Of a stretch of 64,000 bases of DNA, positions 56,925 through 63,917 are shown piece by piece (positions within the stretch are counted from its first letter, which is position 1; each line of letters begins with the position of its first letter). The stretch covers positions 3,787 through 67,786 of the forward strand of contig JAFGGB010000019.1 in assembly GCA_016930775.1 (NCBI GenBank). The letters run 5' to 3'. The notes below the pieces were generated by a model. That model worked only from the letters and a program-made list of their open reading frames with translations. It did not search any database and had not been told where the DNA came from. This stretch comes from Deltaproteobacteria bacterium (GTDB lineage: Bacteria > Desulfobacterota > Syntrophia > Syntrophales > UBA2210). The translations under genes were made by a program, and so were the position numbers.

Positions 56925-57197
56925 ATGAGCGTGAAGCTGTTTTTGACGGTATTTACCACGGTTTTTCTGGCGGAGATGGCCGACAAGACGCAACTGGCTA
57001 CCTTTCTGTATGCTGCCGAAAGCGGAAATAATAAAATGACCGTATTCATCGGATCGGCGGCTGCTCTTGTATGCGCCTCGGCGCTGGCGGTTTTTCTGGG
57101 AAGCGTTCTGTCGTCATTCCTCAATGAAAAAATTATGGGCCGTGTCGCCGGCGCCGCCTTTATACTGGTGGGGATCTGGACCATTGCCCGCTCCTGA
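56925..57197 (+). CDS. Single-domain UPF0016 (GDT1/TMEM165/MneA-type) membrane protein
   Basis: 90 aa with three TM helices. The signature is E-M-A-D-K-T-Q (family motif E-x-G-D-K-T). Confidence 0.83.
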   Translation: MSVKLFLTVFTTVFLAEMADKTQLATFLYAAESGNNKMTVFIGSAAALVCASALAVFLGSVLSSFLNEKIMGRVAGAAFILVGIWTIARS

Positions 57198-57432
57198 GAT
57201 CTTTCGATTGGCAGATACAAAGAGAGTTCGTTGGCAATAATCGATCAAAGGATCCCATTGAGCAACGATCTTAGAGATTTTCAGCATGCAATGATGTGCG
57301 GCTGTGGACAGCTATGGAGACCGCACCTATTAGACCCTGACTGAAACAGGAGAGTCCCACGGAAGCGGTTCGATGGATGACCGCTTCCGTGGGACTCTTG
57401 TGCCATTGCATCGACGGGCGTGTTCGTGACTA

Positions 57433-58254
57433 TTAACGGCCCAGGCCTATTGTGGAAATGAAGCACTGGGAACTGTCGGAACCGGCGCCTCCCGACACGG
57501 GAACATCCGTTGCGACCCCTACCGTCGTTGTCTGAAGATACTGGGTGTAGGGGAAGAAGATATGGCGCCGCCCTTCGTGAAGGAAACCCACGTTGCCTAT
57601 GTCCGCCAGGGGATGTTCGAATTTTGAGAACTCCACCAGTTCGGCGAAGGTGTTCGTGCCGTTCCAATCGAACCAGAGGGTCGATTCGCAGTTATAGACC
57701 TGTTCGTAGGTCTTTCCTCCCGCTCCTCCCTGGTAATAGCCGTTCGGAGTAATGTCGAATTCCACCTGTTCGAAGACGTATTCAACAAATCCCACGCAGG
57801 TGAATTCTCCGGAAGCCGTGCCCTTCTGGTGGCGGAATTGAAAGTCGTAGCCCTTGCCCAGCTGTTCCCGGGCAATCACGATGAGTTGATCTTTCCTTTC
57901 CGGAGGCCAGACTGCGCCGCTGCCGTAGTCGACGGGAACCTTCGCGCCCATGTACTGGCACCCGCGATCAACATCGTCCGCGGTTATGAAATTGTTCGAC
58001 TCTTCCTCGACGACGCCGAAGCGGATGGCATGAATAATCCGTCCGTTGCCTATATAGAGACCCGCGTGCCCGGAACCCAGTTCACCGTTTGTCGCCTCGA
58101 TGACAGAGCAGGGAAGGATGAGCTGGTTTGTCTGACCGTATATTAGTCCCTCTTGGCTTGCATGGTATAGAATCGCCCCTCGTTCAAGGGCAAAAAGGGG
58201 CGGCGCGGCTATGAAGAGGATGCTTAAAAAAACTGCAATCAACAGGCGCTTCAT
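57433..58254 (-). CDS. Exported permuted papain-fold (YiiX/YaeF, C92-like) hydrolase
   Basis: Signal peptide. His region GSGHAGLYIGNGRIIHA precedes the Cys region GKGYDFQFRHQKGTASGEFTCVGFVEYVF (compare E. coli YiiX KPYDFSFSW..YCSEVVWKVY). ATGA overlap with the upstream gene. Confidence 0.72.
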   Translation of the reverse strand: MKRLLIAVFLSILFIAAPPLFALERGAILYHASQEGLIYGQTNQLILPCSVIEATNGELGSGHAGLYIGNGRIIHAIRFGVVEEESNNFITADDVDRGCQYMGAKVPVDYGSGAVWPPERKDQLIVIAREQLGKGYDFQFRHQKGTASGEFTCVGFVEYVFEQVEFDITPNGYYQGGAGGKTYEQVYNCESTLWFDWNGTNTFAELVEFSKFEHPLADIGNVGFLHEGRRHIFFPYTQYLQTTTVGVATDVPVSGGAGSDSSQCFISTIGLGR

Positions 58255-59009
58255 GGTGCAACTCCTTTCGCCGCAGCGCGGACCATGGGGGAGGCATCAG
58301 TAAGAGCTCCGGCAAGGGCGGACCGCGCCTCGCTGGTTATCGTTTTCTTTCCCTTCAGAAGTACGGCGGCGTTATATCGCACGACTGCCGATGAATCCCC
58401 CGCAAGAACCCCGGCAAGGATGTCCTGAGCTGCGGGACCGTCAAAGGCGCCGAGTGCACGGACAATCTCCGCCCGGACGAAGCGGTCGTCATCGGAGCGG
58501 AGCCGGTCTTTCAGCAGCCGAAAGGCTTCGGGAGTGCCGATCTCGCCGAGAGCCTGCGCCGCCTTGAAACGGATTGCGTCATCGGCCGATTCGATGGCAT
58601 CAGCGAGGAGTGGGAAGGATTCCTGCGCCTTCAGTCTTCCCATGCTGAAGATGAGTGTGTACAAAAGGTTGTTTCCTGAGGCAGGGTCCCGGTAGATCTC
58701 CTCGAAAGCCGCCAGGATCTCAGCCCTCGGCCGGGCAAGTTCCGATAGCGCCCGAACGGCCGCCGATCTGATGCCATCGTTTTCCTGCCGGTTTCGGGCG
58801 ATCCTCAGCAACGGTTCCGACGATGCATCCGTTCCCGCAGTTCCGAGCTCGGCAATTGCCCTGACGCGGACCGTTTCATCGGCGCCGCCGTTCAGCGCCC
58901 GTGAGGTCGATTCATCGATGCTGTTGGCCGAGACACTCAATGCCGTGGACAACAGGATGGCGATGCCGGCAGCGCCGGCTCTAACGATTGATGGCACTTT
59001 CACAGTCAT
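58251..59009 (-). CDS. Exported HEAT-repeat (PBS-lyase-type) protein
   Basis: 252 aa. Signal peptide (..LSVSANS). About five repeats of the type D..VR..A..ALG......A...L. ATGA overlaps at both ends. Confidence 0.8.
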   Translation of the reverse strand: MTVKVPSIVRAGAAGIAILLSTALSVSANSIDESTSRALNGGADETVRVRAIAELGTAGTDASSEPLLRIARNRQENDGIRSAAVRALSELARPRAEILAAFEEIYRDPASGNNLLYTLIFSMGRLKAQESFPLLADAIESADDAIRFKAAQALGEIGTPEAFRLLKDRLRSDDDRFVRAEIVRALGAFDGPAAQDILAGVLAGDSSAVVRYNAAVLLKGKKTITSEARSALAGALTDASPMVRAAAKGVAP

Positions 59010-61465
59010 TTTTCCTCCTTTGCTTCCGTTGCGTCCTCCGACGATCGGCCGTATTTTTTGAGGCCTTCGGCCAGTCGATGAAGGTTTCTGTCAACCAGAT
59101 AATTCACCGTTTCAACGGGGTAGATTCCGTCCGGTCCTTTCTCGCCGGCTGTTTTGCCGGAGAGTATTTCAATGCCTTGATCTATTGTTTTTACAGCGTA
59201 GAGGTGAAATTTTCCCTTCCGGATCTCTTCCACAACGTCCTTCCGGAGCATCAGATCTCTTACGTTGCTTTCAGGAATCATCACTCCCTGGGAACCGGTC
59301 AATCCAATCTGCCGGCAGCAGTCATAGAACCCCTCTATCTTCTCGTTGACTCCTCCTATGGGTTGAATCTCGCCCTTCTGATTCACCGATCCCGTTACGG
59401 CTATATCCTGCCTCAGGGGAATTCCTGCGAGGCTTGAAAGGAGAGCGTAAATCTCCGTGGAAGAGGCGCTGTCGCCATCGACGCCGCTGTATGATTGTTC
59501 AAAGGCTATGCTGGCGCTCATGGTCAACGGCATATTCTGGGCATACTTTTCTCTCAGATAGCCGCCGAGGATGAGAACGCCTTTGTTGTGGGTTTTTCCT
59601 GAAAGGTCCGCCTCGCGTTCAATATTGATGATTCCCGCCCGGCCCATGGAGGTCGTAGCAGTGATGCGGGAAGGTTTGCCAAAAGCGTAGTCCCCGAGGG
59701 AATATACGGCCAGGCCGTTAACTTGACCGACCTTGAGACCGGCCACATCAATCATCAGCGACCCTCGATTAATCATCTCCTGGATATGTTCCTCGATTTT
59801 GCTTGAGCGATAAATCCGGGCGTCGATTGCCCTGTCGATGTGTCTATCCCGGACGACATTTTCTTTTTCTTGTGTTGCAATGAAATGAGCCTCGCGGATC
59901 AAATCTGTGACGGTGGGAAAACTGGTGGAGATTTTTTCCTGTCGTCCCGCCATTCGAACGGCATGCTCCGTCAGGGCCGCAACGGCCGTCCTGTCAAAGG
60001 GGTTGAGATTATCCTCGTCAACCTTCATTTTGATGAATCGGCTGAATTGATTAACTGTTTCGTCGGTTCGGTCCATGACGGCGTCGAAGTCGGCGCGCAC
60101 CTTGAATATTTTCTTTACGTCCTCGTCGTACAAAAGGAGGAGGTGGTAGAGGTGGTCGTCCGCAATGACCACCACTTTAATGTCCATCTCAATGGGTTCT
60201 GGTTTCAGGCCGGCGGCGGTGAAGAGGTAGAAGGGATCGTATGTTTGAATTTCCATTCTTTTTGTTTTAAGAGCCCGCTTGAGGGCGGGCCAGACTCCCG
60301 GTTCAACGAGAATGTCCAAGAGATTGAGGACCAGGTAGCCGCCGTTTGCCTTTATGAGAGAGCCGGTCCTTATCTTGCTGAAGTCTGTTTTCCAGACGCC
60401 CGTGCGATCGACGACCCGTTCTATGCTTCCGAAGAGATTTCTGTAGGTGGGGTAGGATTCTACGATTACCGGTGAATGGCCTATCTCGCTGTTGTCCACG
60501 AGCAGGTTCACCTGGTAAGGCTGGAAAAGGTCGCCCTGGGGCATCATGAAGGGGAGCCCCGGAATAGCCTGCTGCTGGGGCATGAAAATCTTCATGTTAT
60601 CCGTCATATCCGCGATCATCGCCGACAAGAAAGCTCCGATTTTGTCCGATGCATATTTCACTTTCAGCGGAGAAACCACATCTTCGGCCACCTGGGCGAA
60701 ATTGAGGCGGTCCATTTTTTCGATATTTTCCTGAATCTCCTTCTGGAGATCTCTGATTTCGAACGTAATCTGGTTGATATCCTCCTTGAGCCTCGCCTGC
60801 TTCTTCTGGAGCTCTTCGAGTTCGGCCCGGGGAAAACGCCCCTTCTCGGCCATTTCCTCCAACTGTTCCAGGGAGACGGGTTTGCCGTCTACCAGGGGCA
60901 CGACATCGGGCCGCTGGAGTTGGCCGATCTGAACATCTACAAGGCCAAAGCCCTCCTCGCGAACCTTTTTGTCCAGTTCCTTGAAGAAGTTTTTGCCTTT
61001 CTTTTCATATTCCTCCATGACCTCCTTCTTGCGCAGAAGATAGTCCTGACTCTCAAAGAGTTGGGGGATCTGCTTCTTCAGATTTTCCACGATTTCATGA
61101 ACATCTTTCTTGAATTCAGAGCCGGCCCCTGCAGAGAACCGTAGAAGGATAGGGGCCTCGGGATCTTTAAAATTGCTTACGTAACAAAGATCGTCCGGCG
61201 CCTTGCCGTTTTCCCGAGCCATTTCCTCCAGTAGTTTTTTAACTGTTGCTAGCCTTCCTGAACCGGCCGTGCCGGTGACAAAGACATTGTAGCCTTCTCT
61301 TTTGATGCCCATACCGAAACGGAAGGCCTCGACGCCCCGTTTCTGGCCGATAATTTCCATGAGAGGCTCGAGGTCGTTTGTGGTTTCGAAGGGGAGTGCC
61401 GCGGGATCAAGACGCCACCTCATCTGTTCGACGGGGACCTTGAATTTTATTGTTCCTGCAGTCAT
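59006..61465 (-). CDS. Lon-like protease, LonC-type (degenerate AAA+ module with coiled-coil insertion plus Ser-Lys Lon protease domain)
   Basis: 819 aa. IGQKRGVEAFRFGMGI..GYNVFVTGTAGSGRL (Walker A Lys replaced by Arg). GGYLVLNLLDIL occupies the place of the hhhhDE Walker B. Long charged helical insertion. Protease domain with GVDGDSASS and GGVNEKIEGF. GAGGAG RBS. Confidence 0.88.
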   Translation of the reverse strand: MTAGTIKFKVPVEQMRWRLDPAALPFETTNDLEPLMEIIGQKRGVEAFRFGMGIKREGYNVFVTGTAGSGRLATVKKLLEEMARENGKAPDDLCYVSNFKDPEAPILLRFSAGAGSEFKKDVHEIVENLKKQIPQLFESQDYLLRKKEVMEEYEKKGKNFFKELDKKVREEGFGLVDVQIGQLQRPDVVPLVDGKPVSLEQLEEMAEKGRFPRAELEELQKKQARLKEDINQITFEIRDLQKEIQENIEKMDRLNFAQVAEDVVSPLKVKYASDKIGAFLSAMIADMTDNMKIFMPQQQAIPGLPFMMPQGDLFQPYQVNLLVDNSEIGHSPVIVESYPTYRNLFGSIERVVDRTGVWKTDFSKIRTGSLIKANGGYLVLNLLDILVEPGVWPALKRALKTKRMEIQTYDPFYLFTAAGLKPEPIEMDIKVVVIADDHLYHLLLLYDEDVKKIFKVRADFDAVMDRTDETVNQFSRFIKMKVDEDNLNPFDRTAVAALTEHAVRMAGRQEKISTSFPTVTDLIREAHFIATQEKENVVRDRHIDRAIDARIYRSSKIEEHIQEMINRGSLMIDVAGLKVGQVNGLAVYSLGDYAFGKPSRITATTSMGRAGIINIEREADLSGKTHNKGVLILGGYLREKYAQNMPLTMSASIAFEQSYSGVDGDSASSTEIYALLSSLAGIPLRQDIAVTGSVNQKGEIQPIGGVNEKIEGFYDCCRQIGLTGSQGVMIPESNVRDLMLRKDVVEEIRKGKFHLYAVKTIDQGIEILSGKTAGEKGPDGIYPVETVNYLVDRNLHRLAEGLKKYGRSSEDATEAKEEK

Positions 61466-61529
61466 CGGTATCTCCTCGTCCTTCTATTTGTGATATGTCG
61501 TTCCTGATCGAGTGCTGTATTTGCGGAAC

Positions 61530-61979
61530 TTAGTCTACTGTTCTAATGGGGATTTCCCTGATCTCCTCGGGACCGCATTTGGGCATGACTACCTGGAGGA
61601 GGCCGTTCTTATGAAGGGCCTCTGTCCGGCTGACATCGACCCGGCAGGGAAGCCGAAAGGTGCGGATGAATGCGCTCCGCCGCGTCTCTCTGCGCCTGAA
61701 AGAATTTTCGTCGCTGCAGAACTCAAATTTCTGCTGGCCCCTGACCGTCAAAACCTCGCCGTTGATGAAGACGTGAATATCCTCTGGGTCCACATCGGGA
61801 AGGTAGGCCCTCAGTATGAGACGGTCTTCCCGTTCGGAAAACTGAAAGGAAAGCGTTCGCCTGGCGATGGCCGGGAACAGGCATTTGTCCATGTCCGTCC
61901 TGAGCCGGGACATGAGACGCTCCATGTCCCTTTTCATTTTCGTGATCTCCTCGTCTTTCCAGATAATCAATCCCGGCAT
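61530..61979 (-). CDS. Hsp20/alpha-crystallin small heat-shock protein
   Basis: Start at ATG 61979 (AGGAGG RBS); the ORF-track start at 62093 has none. Alpha-crystallin core LILRAYLPDVDPEDIHVFINGEVLTVRG...FIRTFRLPCRVDVSRTEALHKNGLLQVVMPK. Confidence 0.87.
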   Translation of the reverse strand: MPGLIIWKDEEITKMKRDMERLMSRLRTDMDKCLFPAIARRTLSFQFSEREDRLILRAYLPDVDPEDIHVFINGEVLTVRGQQKFEFCSDENSFRRRETRRSAFIRTFRLPCRVDVSRTEALHKNGLLQVVMPKCGPEEIREIPIRTVD

Positions 61980-62041
61980 GGCTTCTCCTCCTGGCAATAA
62001 AACGGCCCGGTCGATCGGACCGCAACGCTTGCGAGTATATG

Positions 62042-62070
62042 ATATTAAGAAGCATGAAGAATAATGGCAA
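62042..62070 (-). promoter_or_regulatory. Sigma-70-type promoter of hsp20
   Basis: The minus strand reads TTGCCA-17 nt-TAATAT, ~60 nt upstream of ATG 61979. Confidence 0.5.
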
Positions 62071-62140
62071 GGAAAATATAAATCACCCTCCAAAAGAATC
62101 GAATCTTAAATATTTGAAGGAGTCTTTGCTAAGGTTGATT

Positions 62141-63220
62141 TTATTCAGGGAACAGCGGTTCGACGAGGTCGGCAATCCTGCCCGACCGGACGGCCTCAAG
62201 GAAGGCGTCGCGAAGCCGCCCCCCTTCTTCGATAACGATGGACCACAATCGGCGCCGTTCGTCGTCGCGGTCCCGAAACAGGGTAAAATCCTGCCGGTCC
62301 GGCACTCGCTTCAGAGGAAGTCTTTCAAGGAATATCCTTGAGGGCGCCGCCAGCAGGACTTGTTCCATATGCTCGCGCCGTGGTTTCCTGGCTGGGATAT
62401 TCTTGTCGAACCATCCGGGCGTTATAATGTGGGTGTAATGAGGGAACAAAACGATCGTGCCCTTCGGGGGAGAGAAGGGGAGGTCCAGATGATAATCGAT
62501 TATTCCGCCGTCGCGGTAGGTTCCTCGGGGAGCTCCATTAATGGAGGCGACGCCCGACATTATCAGAGGTATGGATCCCGAGGCCAACAGAACATCCATA
62601 AAATTCTCTTCCGTCAGAGATGAGGAAAGTGAGGGGAAGTCGGTCATGTTGAAAAAGGGCGGCAGGTCCCGGGGATCGTGGAAGAGAGCCCGATCGAAAA
62701 GAATCCTCAGGCACTTCCGGTTGATCCGGTTCATCAACGCTGCCAGAACAAGGCTTCCCGTCTGAACGATGCGATTGTCGAAGGCGGCTATTCCGCGGCA
62801 TCGCGCAGCTATGATGCTGGTCCGGAAGATAGGATGCCGGAGAATCTCCCCGGGTGCGTTTTTTTCGATGTAACCTCTCTGAATGTTAAAACTTGCGGCG
62901 GTGACTTCTTGAGGGAAGGGATGTCGATCGTATCGCTGGCCGATATAGAGTTCCCTGAATCGCCGAAGAGCCTTTCCCGGTTGCTGTTGCGCCATGGCGG
63001 CGAAGCGCCAGGCGCCGATGGAAGAGCCTATCAGAAAAAGAGGCGCGCGCCGGCCGGCGAACCACTCCGTCGCCAGCGATTCGTCAAGAGCGCTGAGCGC
63101 CAGTGCCTTCGGTCCGCCCGCCGCACCTGCCACAATAGATACGGTCGACGGTTCGAGGCCCTCCTGCCTGATAGTTCGGTAAGCCTTGGGGCCGGCGAGA
63201 AATCGTATGTTCTCAAACAT
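62141..63220 (-). CDS. Patatin-like phospholipase
   Basis: 359 aa. Oxyanion GAAGGPKA, nucleophile elbow GSSIG, and Asp motif YRDGGIIDY. Confidence 0.86.
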   Translation of the reverse strand: MFENIRFLAGPKAYRTIRQEGLEPSTVSIVAGAAGGPKALALSALDESLATEWFAGRRAPLFLIGSSIGAWRFAAMAQQQPGKALRRFRELYIGQRYDRHPFPQEVTAASFNIQRGYIEKNAPGEILRHPIFRTSIIAARCRGIAAFDNRIVQTGSLVLAALMNRINRKCLRILFDRALFHDPRDLPPFFNMTDFPSLSSSLTEENFMDVLLASGSIPLIMSGVASINGAPRGTYRDGGIIDYHLDLPFSPPKGTIVLFPHYTHIITPGWFDKNIPARKPRREHMEQVLLAAPSRIFLERLPLKRVPDRQDFTLFRDRDDERRRLWSIVIEEGGRLRDAFLEAVRSGRIADLVEPLFPE

Positions 63221-63330
63221 CGACTCGGTTCCGGTTCAATTTTCGATTTTCACGGGACCCGGCTTCGGTTGTCAAACAGAGCCTCCAGCGCCGAGGATAG
63301 TCCTTGCCGCTATAGCTGACGGAGCTTTTT

Positions 63331-63714
63331 TTATGAGCAGATGGCAATCGCTTCAATCTCCAGCGGAACCCCCTTGGGCAGACGGCTCACCTCCACGCAG
63401 GCTCTCGCCGGTCTGGAGTCTCCGAAGTATTCATCGTAAATTGCGTTGAACTCGGCAAATTTTTCCATATCCGTGAGAAAGACCGTTACCTTGACAACAT
63501 TTTCGAGAGAGCTTCCCGCCGCTATTGCTATTGCCGTGAGACTGTCGAGGACCGCCTTGACCTGCCGGTCGAAGGGACCGGCGACCAGCTCGTTCGTCGT
63601 CGGATCAAGAGGGATCTGCCCTGATATGTAGAGAGTTGATCCCGCCTTGATCGCCTGAGAGTAGGGACCTACGGGAGCGGGAGCTCGATTCGTGAAGATG
63701 ATTTTTCTGTCCAT
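63331..63714 (-). CDS. ridA: RidA/YjgF-family reactive-intermediate deaminase
   Basis: Start at ATG 63714 (GAAGGAGG RBS). [28 protein letters not shown] ... [22 protein letters not shown]. Confidence 0.92.
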
Positions 63715-63917
63715 CGTTGCCTCCTTCAGACTGTTGCCTTGTCTCGGAATATGGTTGTATGCATCCCGCGACACTATGTCAATAGATTTGTCCGTGTCGT
63801 CGTTTCATTGAAAGCTTCCGGAAACGTTCTTGAGAACAATGATTAAAGAGTTGCAGAAGCCTCGCACCTCTGTTAAGTGTAATTTCTTCGGGCCGCTGAA
63901 TGGTTCGGCTGACAGTC

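Follow-up and report, generated by a model that had tools for sequence, protein, structure and literature searches.

An hsp20-lonC pair and an exported HEAT-repeat/papain-like pair, each conserved by itself, adjoin in a probable single transcription unit of a Syntrophales metagenome-assembled genome

The small heat-shock proteins, or sHsps, act as ATP-independent holdases. Enterobacteria carry them in the locus of heat resistance, or tLST, where one operon combines sHsps with a protease or chaperone and with proteins of the periplasm or envelope. The locus, which includes the ATP-dependent ClpK, is a multi-gene island that is both conserved and mobile. LonC of Meiothermus taiwanensis (MtaLonC) is a heat-induced, ATP-independent enzyme that acts as both protease and holdase (PMC3391209, PMC13069640). 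Permuted NlpC/P60 enzymes have been argued to act on lipid-linked substrates rather than on peptidoglycan (PMC3142127), and the one exported bacterial member that has been characterised, LnsA of Staphylococcus aureus, depends on a partner protein for its N-acylation of lipoproteins (PMC7387801). We compared these systems with a locus in a 64,000-nucleotide stretch of DNA (the window, by which the whole stretch analysed is meant) from contig JAFGGB010000019.1 of the metagenome-assembled genome (MAG) GCA_016930775.1, a member of the Syntrophales. Four head-to-tail genes on the minus strand were identified from open reading frames (ORFs) and Pfam matches, namely hsp20, lonC, a HEAT-repeat gene and a papain-like gene. 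We consider it about 80% probable that the region is one transcription unit in which two independently conserved bicistronic modules are joined end to end in this MAG. The features of the unit, in the direction of transcription, are as follows:

62042-62071, minus strand: putative operon promoter, CTTGCC(-35)-N17-TAATAT(-10), from a consensus scan and comparison of related loci.
61530-61979, minus strand: hsp20, 149 aa, with an alpha-crystallin domain (Pfam HSP20, 47.7 bits against a cutoff of 20.8).
59006-61465, minus strand: lonC, 819 aa (Pfam LonC_helical, AAA_32, LonB_AAA-LID and Lon_C).
59006-59009, minus strand: ATGA in which the lonC stop overlaps the HEAT start, with a Shine-Dalgarno (SD) site AAGGAGG 5 nt upstream in the lonC tail, read from the sequence.
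58251-59009, minus strand: HEAT-repeat protein of 252 aa, predicted to be exported, with a signal peptide over residues 1-28 (Pfam HEAT_2, 100 bits).
58251-58254, minus strand: ATGA overlap of the HEAT stop and the papain-like start, read from the sequence.
57433-58254, minus strand: permuted NlpC/P60 cysteine enzyme (YaeF/YiiX-like/LRAT-like) of 273 aa, predicted to be exported, with a signal peptide over residues 1-22.
57351-57398, minus strand: terminator-like hairpin after the last gene, a 19-bp perfect stem followed by CCTGTTTCAG, from sequence and folding.

Much of this layout had been described in the original prediction, which placed four same-strand genes behind a sigma-70-like promoter and coupled the last three by ATGA overlaps. 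The gene identities were borne out by ORFs, SD sites and Pfam matches, and the promoter TTGCCA-17-TAATAT was recovered at 62070-62042 by the consensus scan. Both overlaps are present in the sequence, each behind a good SD located 5-8 nt upstream (AAGGAGGaaaaATGA and AAAGGAGttgcaccATGA).

Gene neighbourhoods were surveyed from both sides of the unit. Starting from LonC, 80 species-representative loci with 49-72% identity were retrieved with a profile built from 21 LonC sequences; they were the best 80 of at least 592 confirmed. One further locus from a complete MAG brought the set to 81 LonC loci (49-74% identity overall), and their six-frame ORFs were searched with all four window proteins. 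On the papain side, 110 homologues were found in a large protein collection, one of them a 100% match (JW884_01770, from an NCBI MAG), and a metagenome scan gave 75 loci; there were 83 loci in total, of which 69 could be assessed. Homologues of the HEAT or papain-like proteins lay within ~8 kb in 0/81 LonC loci, including the closest relative among the matches listed (74% identity) and a metagenome locus, L169, that shares upstream genes with the window. Conversely, lonC or hsp20 lay within 6 kb in 0/83 HEAT/papain loci. At least three of the four genes were adjacent in none of the 81 LonC or 83 HEAT/papain loci. The suggestion that the four genes form one conserved, coupled and uncharacterised module is contradicted by these counts, absence of the adjacency from related genomes being the refuting outcome that had been named beforehand. 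The neighbourhood survey that had been proposed alongside it recovered the hsp20-lonC and HEAT-papain pairs as conserved, and did not recover three or more of the genes together. Because the two pairs adjoin only in the window and each is conserved separately, the four genes are not a new four-part system. Their juxtaposition is best read, from the gene orders compared, as a lineage-specific operon fusion without evidence of shared function, in which the second pair would have landed directly after the lonC stop in this lineage. Apart from position in this MAG, nothing ties hsp20-lonC to the HEAT/papain pair functionally.

The hsp20-lonC pair was found across a broad range of genomes. Directly upstream of lonC and on the same strand, hsp20 was present in 52/81 LonC loci; where LonC identity was at least 57%, the count was 51/53. 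These loci span Desulfobacterales, Desulfatiglandales, Desulfovibrionales and some others. The gap between the two genes had a median of 52 nt and was shorter than 200 nt in 50/52. Clustering of the neighbouring ORFs found no other family beside lonC in more than 15/78 loci. Identity to the window hsp20 is only 40-50% among its nearest homologues, and in a reciprocal check three of three independently chosen homologues (44-48% identity) were followed by lonC; several more lie on contigs equal in length to contigs with LonC matches. At the locus of the 74%-identity LonC, the pair is followed by a 500-nt gap and then by bioB. We read the pair as a putative heat-shock-type operon, widespread in Desulfobacterota and lying behind a conserved promoter of the form CTTGCA-N17-TAnnAT. 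Since LonC and sHsps are known kinds of protein, it is a modest variation of the heat-shock chaperone-protease operon; no description of LonC and Hsp20 in one operon was found in the literature searched.

A different setting was seen at LonC loci of greater distance, in Syntrophales and related lineages, with genes for an AAA_2 (Clp-like) ATPase and dnaJ upstream and rsmE downstream, and hsp20 was not there. The dnaJ-lonC-rsmE order was seen at L051-L065 and L080 (e.g., L080:6747-7808, L059:3856-5895 and L055:10393-11241), and a description of this arrangement was likewise not found in the literature searched. Given the hsp20 linkage and this distant dnaJ/rsmE setting, LonC is repeatedly embedded in chaperone operons. 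Judging by these gene orders, it seems to have been put into different chaperone operons in different lineages.

The Lon-like gene is, by sequence comparison, a member of the described LonC subfamily (MEROPS S16C). Its diagnostic features are:

61250-61273, minus strand: Walker A-like motif GTAGSGRL, with Arg71 for Lys, aligned with GPPSLGKH of MtaLonC.
60518-61093, minus strand: LonC-specific helical-hairpin insertion, approximately residues 125-316, placed from the Pfam flanks with approximate boundaries.
60314-60337, minus strand: Walker B-like motif YLVLNLLD, with Asn381-Leu382 in the place of D-E; GYLVLNL aligned with GYLILDA of MtaLonC.
59339-59470, minus strand: catalytic dyad Ser666 (GDSASS) and Lys709 (NEKIEG), from alignment with S582 and K625 of MtaLonC.

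The best solved relative was MtaLonC (4fwd; E = 1.5e-90 over residues 317-772), and Lon_C was matched at 46 bits against a cutoff of 21. MtaLonC (4fwd, 7euy, 8k8v; MEROPS S16C) and the window protein share a Walker A-like motif, the helical-hairpin insertion, an AAA-like alpha/beta domain with lid and the S16 protease domain with its Ser-Lys dyad; the chain of the S582A mutant in the PDB aligns in the same column as S666. Both also lack the Walker B glutamate, the LonA N-domain and the LonB membrane anchor. In the window LonC, no Pfam match to the LonA N-domain and no transmembrane segment were found, the highest 19-aa Kyte-Doolittle window being 1.34. LonC_helical was matched at 49.3 bits (cutoff 24) over residues 92-124 and AAA_32 resumes at residue 331, with ~190 residues between them. 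The insertion segment gave weak, coiled-coil-like matches to ATG16 and LmuB, and the equivalent insertion of MtaLonC is a substrate-binding and chaperone element (PMC13069640). An affiliation with defence systems (e.g., BREX BrxL) was considered and rejected, as PADLOC gave only a weak LmuB match (~17 bits) and generic HEAT-repeat matches.

The window protein differs from MtaLonC in carrying Arg for the Lys of GPPSLGKH and Asn for the Asp of GYLILDA, which are defined as the degenerate Walker A-like and Walker B-like motifs of LonC in PMC3391209, and its N-terminal third is weakly alignable (13.6 bits). Residues G65, G68, G70, R71 and N381 are invariant in 21 members of the LonC clade. Because R71 and N381 are invariant where MtaLonC keeps Lys and Asp, the clade of the window LonC is even more degenerate than MtaLonC. 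The Ser-Lys dyad, the Arg in Walker A and the absence of an acidic Walker B had all been noted in the original prediction; alignment with the solved LonC, a check proposed there, upheld each of them, and clade invariance agreed for the Walker residues. The description of the protein as an ATPase-dead Lon-like protease holds for its degenerate Walker motifs. It does not hold as a peculiarity of this gene, since Walker loss defines the described LonC subfamily. The accompanying statement that LonC-type proteases are ATP-independent agrees with the biochemistry of MtaLonC (PMC3391209). From the motif loss and that same biochemistry, we infer that the window LonC would proteolyse unfolded substrates without ATP. 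The window lonC also has a dedicated upstream hsp20, of which there is no mention in the MtaLonC papers (PMC3391209, PMC13069640).

The sHsp encoded upstream has ordinary features. The HSP20 (PF00011) match spans residues 49-145 of the 149-aa protein (87-183 of the 187-aa ORF scanned). Its start is the ATG at 61979, behind the SD AGGAGG at 61992-61987, and a longer, TTG-started ORF was rejected as the gene on this ground. The C-terminus, ...REIPIRTVD, carries the I/V-X-I/V oligomerisation motif (I-P-I). By a hydrophobicity and charge heuristic, no signal-peptide-like segment was found in Hsp20 or LonC, as had been noted previously for both.

Proteins of the LonC subfamily assemble into a ring-shaped Ser-Lys protease, which breaks down unfolded polypeptides and is capable of holdase activity at high temperature. 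LonC and the sHsp may act on one pool of unfolding cytoplasmic proteins. The sHsp could hold clients for LonC, or could itself be a LonC substrate, giving an ATP-free triage route. Alternatively, hsp20 and lonC may merely be co-regulated, with the sHsp feeding DnaK/ClpB and LonC degrading free unfolded chains, and with no hand-over or adaptor role; we put this at a little short of an even chance. The occurrence of dnaJ instead of hsp20 beside distant LonC fits the idea that any heat-shock operon will do, MtaLonC alone suffices in vitro as protease and chaperone (PMC3391209, PMC13069640), and the sHsp, with its alpha-crystallin domain and IXI motif, has nothing out of the ordinary. Mere co-regulation is harder to square with the tightness of the linkage (51/53 loci at 57% identity or more, with a 52-nt median gap) while the other neighbours change, and with the nearest sHsp homologues checked, all of which were LonC-linked, suggesting a dedicated sHsp lineage. 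In addition, a preprint gives E. coli IbpA and IbpB as Lon substrates (bioRxiv 10.1101/2020.06.17.157248). The E. coli IbpA/IbpB and LonA system resembles the window pair in having an sHsp and a Lon-family protease in one cytoplasmic quality-control pathway. However, E. coli LonA is ATP-dependent and ibpAB and lon are not one operon, whereas the window pair has a predicted ATP-independent LonC whose gene adjoins hsp20 in 52 of the 81 loci.

A more ambitious proposal is that the sHsp and LonC of Desulfobacterota are an ATP-free holdase-to-protease machine, the sHsp delivering clients to the helical basket of LonC or being co-degraded there, and that its heat-shock promoter has here captured an exported, lipid-modifying pair. 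We regard this as rather unlikely. If it were true, energy-starved anaerobes would clear heat-damaged proteins without ATP cost, and remodelling of envelope lipids or lipoproteins would be co-induced with sHsp-LonC in this lineage. LonC is biochemically characterised, but most work on its physiological role concerns one thermophile. The tightly conserved partner sHsp of sulfate reducers and their relatives offers a testable hypothesis of ATP-independent quality control, and the pair is present in cultivable Desulfovibrio-type organisms (e.g., L044 and L045) in which genetics is possible.

The HEAT/papain pair was conserved within its own survey. The HEAT gene stood directly upstream of the papain-like gene in 68/69 assessable loci, and in at least 55 homologous loci the overlap is likewise exactly 4 nt. 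Three papain-like homologues on long contigs, in three unrelated contexts, each lay behind a 251-aa HEAT gene with a 4-nt overlap. No third conserved neighbour was found for the pair, the next best being present in 11/74 loci. Non-coding DNA of 100-300 nt precedes the HEAT gene in other genomes, often with the promoter-like sequence CTTTGCA-N17-TATAT[GA], which was seen ~90 nt upstream of the HEAT start on many Syntrophales-type contigs (e.g., L085, L091, L096 and L123). The second module, a HEAT protein with a permuted NlpC/P60 enzyme, is translationally coupled and stands alone, occurring in many unrelated contexts in Syntrophales and other Desulfobacterota. Together with the CFI-box described below, it is an uncharacterised, narrowly distributed envelope module.

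Both proteins of this pair carry predicted signal peptides, MTVKVPSIVRAGAAGIAILLSTALSVSA before NS in the HEAT protein and MKRLLIAVFLSILFIAAPPLFA before LE in the papain-like protein, according to the same heuristic. The feature recurs in 47/50 HEAT homologues and 25/26 papain-like homologues, and nearly all homologues open with a basic n-region followed by a hydrophobic core and a cleavage motif of small residues. The earlier expectation that both downstream proteins are exported is thus supported by the heuristic and by conservation among homologues. The permuted papain fold that had also been suggested is reflected in the order of the catalytic candidates: in a 26-sequence alignment, His63 and Cys153 are invariant and His75 nearly so, and G62-H63 and I74-H75 precede F151-T-C153-V-G, a His-before-Cys circular permutation. 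An AF2 model of the enzyme (pLDDT 77) had YiiX (2if6) as its top fold match in the PDB (probability 1.0, E = 3e-3, TM 0.41/0.59), followed by the LRAT-family phospholipase/acyltransferases AdPLA, H-REV107 and PLAAT4; the E-values are weak. NLPC_P60 reached 27.3 bits against a cutoff of 23, with no single stretch passing, and the YiiX equivalog of NCBIfam gave no match to the window protein and 25.5 bits against a cutoff of 216 in the homologue P0122. Because the curated Peptidase_C92 and YiiX thresholds are not reached, we filed the enzyme at the superfamily level only.

E. coli YiiX and Bacillus cereus BcPPNE (Peptidase_C92; PMC3142127) share with the window enzyme the permuted papain core, with His before Cys. 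They differ from it in the third triad residue, which is a conserved Glu in YaeF/YiiX enzymes and probably His75 here, and the window enzyme is ~100 residues longer. S. aureus LnsA, which works with LnsB (PMC7387801), is likewise an exported, permuted NlpC/P60 enzyme of the YiiX/LRAT-like type, and it acts on a lipid-modified envelope substrate only with the help of a second protein. That partner is a CPBP-family membrane protein, whereas the window partner is a predicted soluble, exported HEAT-repeat protein; the window genes are adjacent and overlapping, whereas the S. aureus lns genes are non-contiguous; and the C-terminal part of the window enzyme includes an additional beta-rich subdomain and a CFI-box. 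The likeness drawn here is one of kind and not a claim of sequence orthology. In view of the permuted enzymes reviewed in PMC3142127 and of LnsA (PMC7387801), a lipid or lipoprotein acyl-hydrolase or acyl-transferase is favoured over an amidase. The earlier label of a YiiX-type amidase/hydrolase is accordingly kept for the superfamily fold and given up for orthology and for the amidase wording, since the literature points to lipid or lipoprotein substrates. The enzyme may thus work in the periplasm or envelope as an acyl-hydrolase or acyl-transferase whose substrate is a lipid or is lipidated, and the HEAT protein may be its stoichiometric, obligate partner, acting as a scaffold, specificity factor or inhibitor.

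Near its C-terminus the enzyme carries one further motif:

57457-57465, minus strand: CFI-box, Cys264-Phe265-Ile266; within the family, C264 and F265 do not vary and I266 hardly does.

The C-F-I motif is common to this enzyme family and to the CFI-box-CTERM proteins (NF041770/NF041763), in which it is a putative sorting signal. It is kept in three forms of the enzyme. Forms of ~272 aa stop 6-9 residues past the box, those of ~302 aa have a helix and a basic tail, and in those of ~370-390 aa a full CFI_box_CTERM domain supplies a transmembrane helix and a tail rich in Arg. The window enzyme is of the short form; it ends about 7-8 residues past the CFI-box and differs from the CFI-box-CTERM proteins in having no transmembrane helix or basic tail. 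Long-form orthologues (P0218 and P0122) match CFI_box_CTERM (NF041770) at 1e-23 to 1e-30. Because the motif is kept in forms without a membrane anchor, a simple sorting-signal role fails to explain it. A role as a general CFI-box sorting enzyme was considered and rejected: searching 1.84 billion cluster representatives with a profile yielded 8,177 matches at E <= 1e-10, in proteins of many lengths, and most of the best matches listed cover only the CFI-box-CTERM positions. The enzyme family itself is narrow, with about three 50%-identity clusters and fragments. No other CFI-box proteins were found in the window, and the CFI-box, though curated in NCBIfam, had no mention in the literature searched. 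The overlapping exported HEAT and permuted NlpC/P60 pair could help to explain the role of bacterial YiiX-like enzymes and that of the CFI-box.

As a separate observation, many proteins of 1,000-1,700 aa begin with the segment that forms the first ~260 aa of the enzyme and comprises its signal peptide, permuted NlpC/P60 core and beta-rich subdomain, with E-values of 1e-38 to 1e-25 (P0260, P0264 and P0267-P0309). This N-terminal module is thus reused in large proteins that are presumably at the surface.

At the junction of the two pairs, the coding sequence of lonC fills the position that the HEAT promoter-like region takes in other genomes. With no promoter-like region of its own here, the second pair is probably expressed by read-through from the hsp20 promoter. 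No internal HEAT promoter was detected within the 3' end of lonC, either by the scan or by comparison with CTTTGCA-N17-TATAT. On the coding strand, the interior of the unit gave neither a consensus promoter nor a terminator in the scan, save for a terminator-like stem in the hsp20 leader (62023-62002) in a scan whose total count is at chance level. Beyond the last gene, the 133-nt stretch with the hairpin (57300-57432) folds at -56.4 kcal/mol (z -5.35), and 0/200 shuffles were as stable. On these grounds, the four genes are likely to be co-transcribed in this genome. The lonC/HEAT junction was found in no other LonC locus examined. GC3 is similar over all genes of the unit (0.62-0.71), and a recent foreign origin of the HEAT/papain pair was rejected because its GC3 is indistinguishable from that of its neighbours.

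The bare promoter consensus was not above chance, with 2 sites in the scan against 2.6 expected. Comparison of related loci was more informative: the motif CTTG[AC][ACT]-N17-TAnnAT lies upstream of the LonC-linked hsp20 in 17/51 loci, the window included, compared with 0.2 in shuffled sequences, a statistic that is indicative only, the motif having been derived after inspection of the sequences. The window promoter is positionally equivalent to it and has the same 30-nt architecture. Some LonC-linked hsp20 loci have CTCCAT or CTCCTA just ahead of the TA. The sigma-32 consensus of delta-proteobacteria is CTTGAAA-N11/16-CCCCAT (PMC545781). The leading C and the CTCCAT/CTCCTA of the hsp20 promoter resemble this consensus, and a sigma-70 reading fits equally well. 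Strict and loose CIRCE patterns, an E. coli-type sigma-32 expression and sigma-54 patterns gave no conserved match upstream of hsp20 in the 51 loci.

We consider it very improbable that the four genes are one functional system, in which an energy-independent cytoplasmic holdase and protease would be wired to two envelope proteins and link proteostasis in the cytoplasm to remodelling of the envelope under stress. Such a system would account for the single promoter, the lack of an internal terminator, the two ATGA overlaps with their SDs and the strong final hairpin. The exported pair lacks its usual promoter-like region and is probably induced with hsp20-lonC here, and the locus of heat resistance, with its sHsps, Clp ATPase and envelope or periplasmic proteins, provides a precedent. 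Nevertheless, the arrangement is absent from all 81 LonC and 83 HEAT/papain loci, the closest listed relative and L169 among them, each pair is conserved by itself in varied contexts, and the products are predicted to reside in different compartments, with no bridging membrane component encoded. While the locus of heat resistance is a conserved island, the window arrangement was found in no other locus examined, and the two are compared by composition, with no homology of their parts claimed. Had the four-gene reading been upheld, cytoplasm and envelope would have been bridged by a new stress module; the failure of that reading keeps a false system out of catalogues. Least credible is an assembly or binning artefact at the lonC/HEAT junction, since, although the window comes from a MAG, with P0121 and P0231 matching an NCBI MAG at 100%, and the junction is unique among the loci examined, the order patatin-hsp20-lonC-HEAT and the 4-nt overlap recur in an independent Logan assembly of run SRR13394437, which makes a chimeric contig unlikely, both ORFs are intact with the SD and start codon correctly placed, and GC3 is uniform across the junction.

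Several points weigh against the reading of two independently conserved modules joined in one transcription unit. The sampled loci are species representatives and metagenome contigs that are phylogenetically related, and their counts are non-independent events; some contigs of the survey were too short for their neighbours to be assessed. The LonC survey, as the best 80 of the confirmed loci, is without Deinococcota loci, the characterised MtaLonC included. Co-transcription is a likely state deduced from sequence, and direct cooperation of the sHsp and LonC is hypothetical. The 4-nt lonC/HEAT overlap and its good SD look selected, and functional coupling in this lineage is possible. For the papain-like protein, Peptidase_C92 reached 20.6 bits, under the cutoff of 27, and the sort_motif_CFI of NCBIfam (NF041763) 12.0 bits, under the cutoff of 15.9.

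Additional observations were made on the genes around the hsp20-lonC pair. The neighbours of the unit in the window are:

63331-63774, minus strand: RidA/L-PSP gene, upstream.
62141-63220, minus strand: patatin-like gene, upstream.
56925-57197, plus strand: GDT1-family gene, downstream and convergent.

A RidA gene followed by a patatin-like phospholipase gene lies upstream both in the window (62141-63774) and on the one metagenome contig L169 (474-2184), where a C25 peptidase gene follows hsp20-lonC. To judge from the gene order, the RidA-patatin upstream region marks ancestral local synteny, and the HEAT/papain pair would have been added downstream of it. At 15 hsp20-lonC loci (e.g., L013:10345-10989 and L030:6185-6958), a small Cys-rich protein (CCxxC..CC) is encoded directly downstream of lonC. 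It is often followed by a ~250-aa protein, and neither had a Pfam match. At L007, L009, L020 and L053, conserved coding DNA (...GGCCAGGGCTCTGAAGCCGCC...CCATACTGGAAAAAGGAGG) reaches the SD of hsp20 and leaves no intergenic promoter region; hsp20-lonC appears, from these sequences, to be appended to another operon there.

The leader of hsp20 in the window contains a sigma-54-like GG-N10-GC match, GGGCCGTTTTATTGCC, at 61994-62009, directly before the SD, which is absent from 50 related loci. Because it is confined to the window and abuts the SD, we took this match to be probably due to chance. An RNA thermometer in the leader was considered and rejected, as the fold of 61965-62036 had a z of 0.22 against shuffles and left the SD open. 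No ROSE or fourU element was matched by Rfam in the window, and its sole Rfam matches were sub-threshold and on the terminator hairpin. The hairpin at 57351-57398 sits between the convergent papain-like and GDT1 genes, has a weak T-tract and is probably, by its structure and position, a bidirectional terminator. The spurious, sub-threshold Rfam matches (mir-2076 and Sso133), found on both strands, come from its stem.

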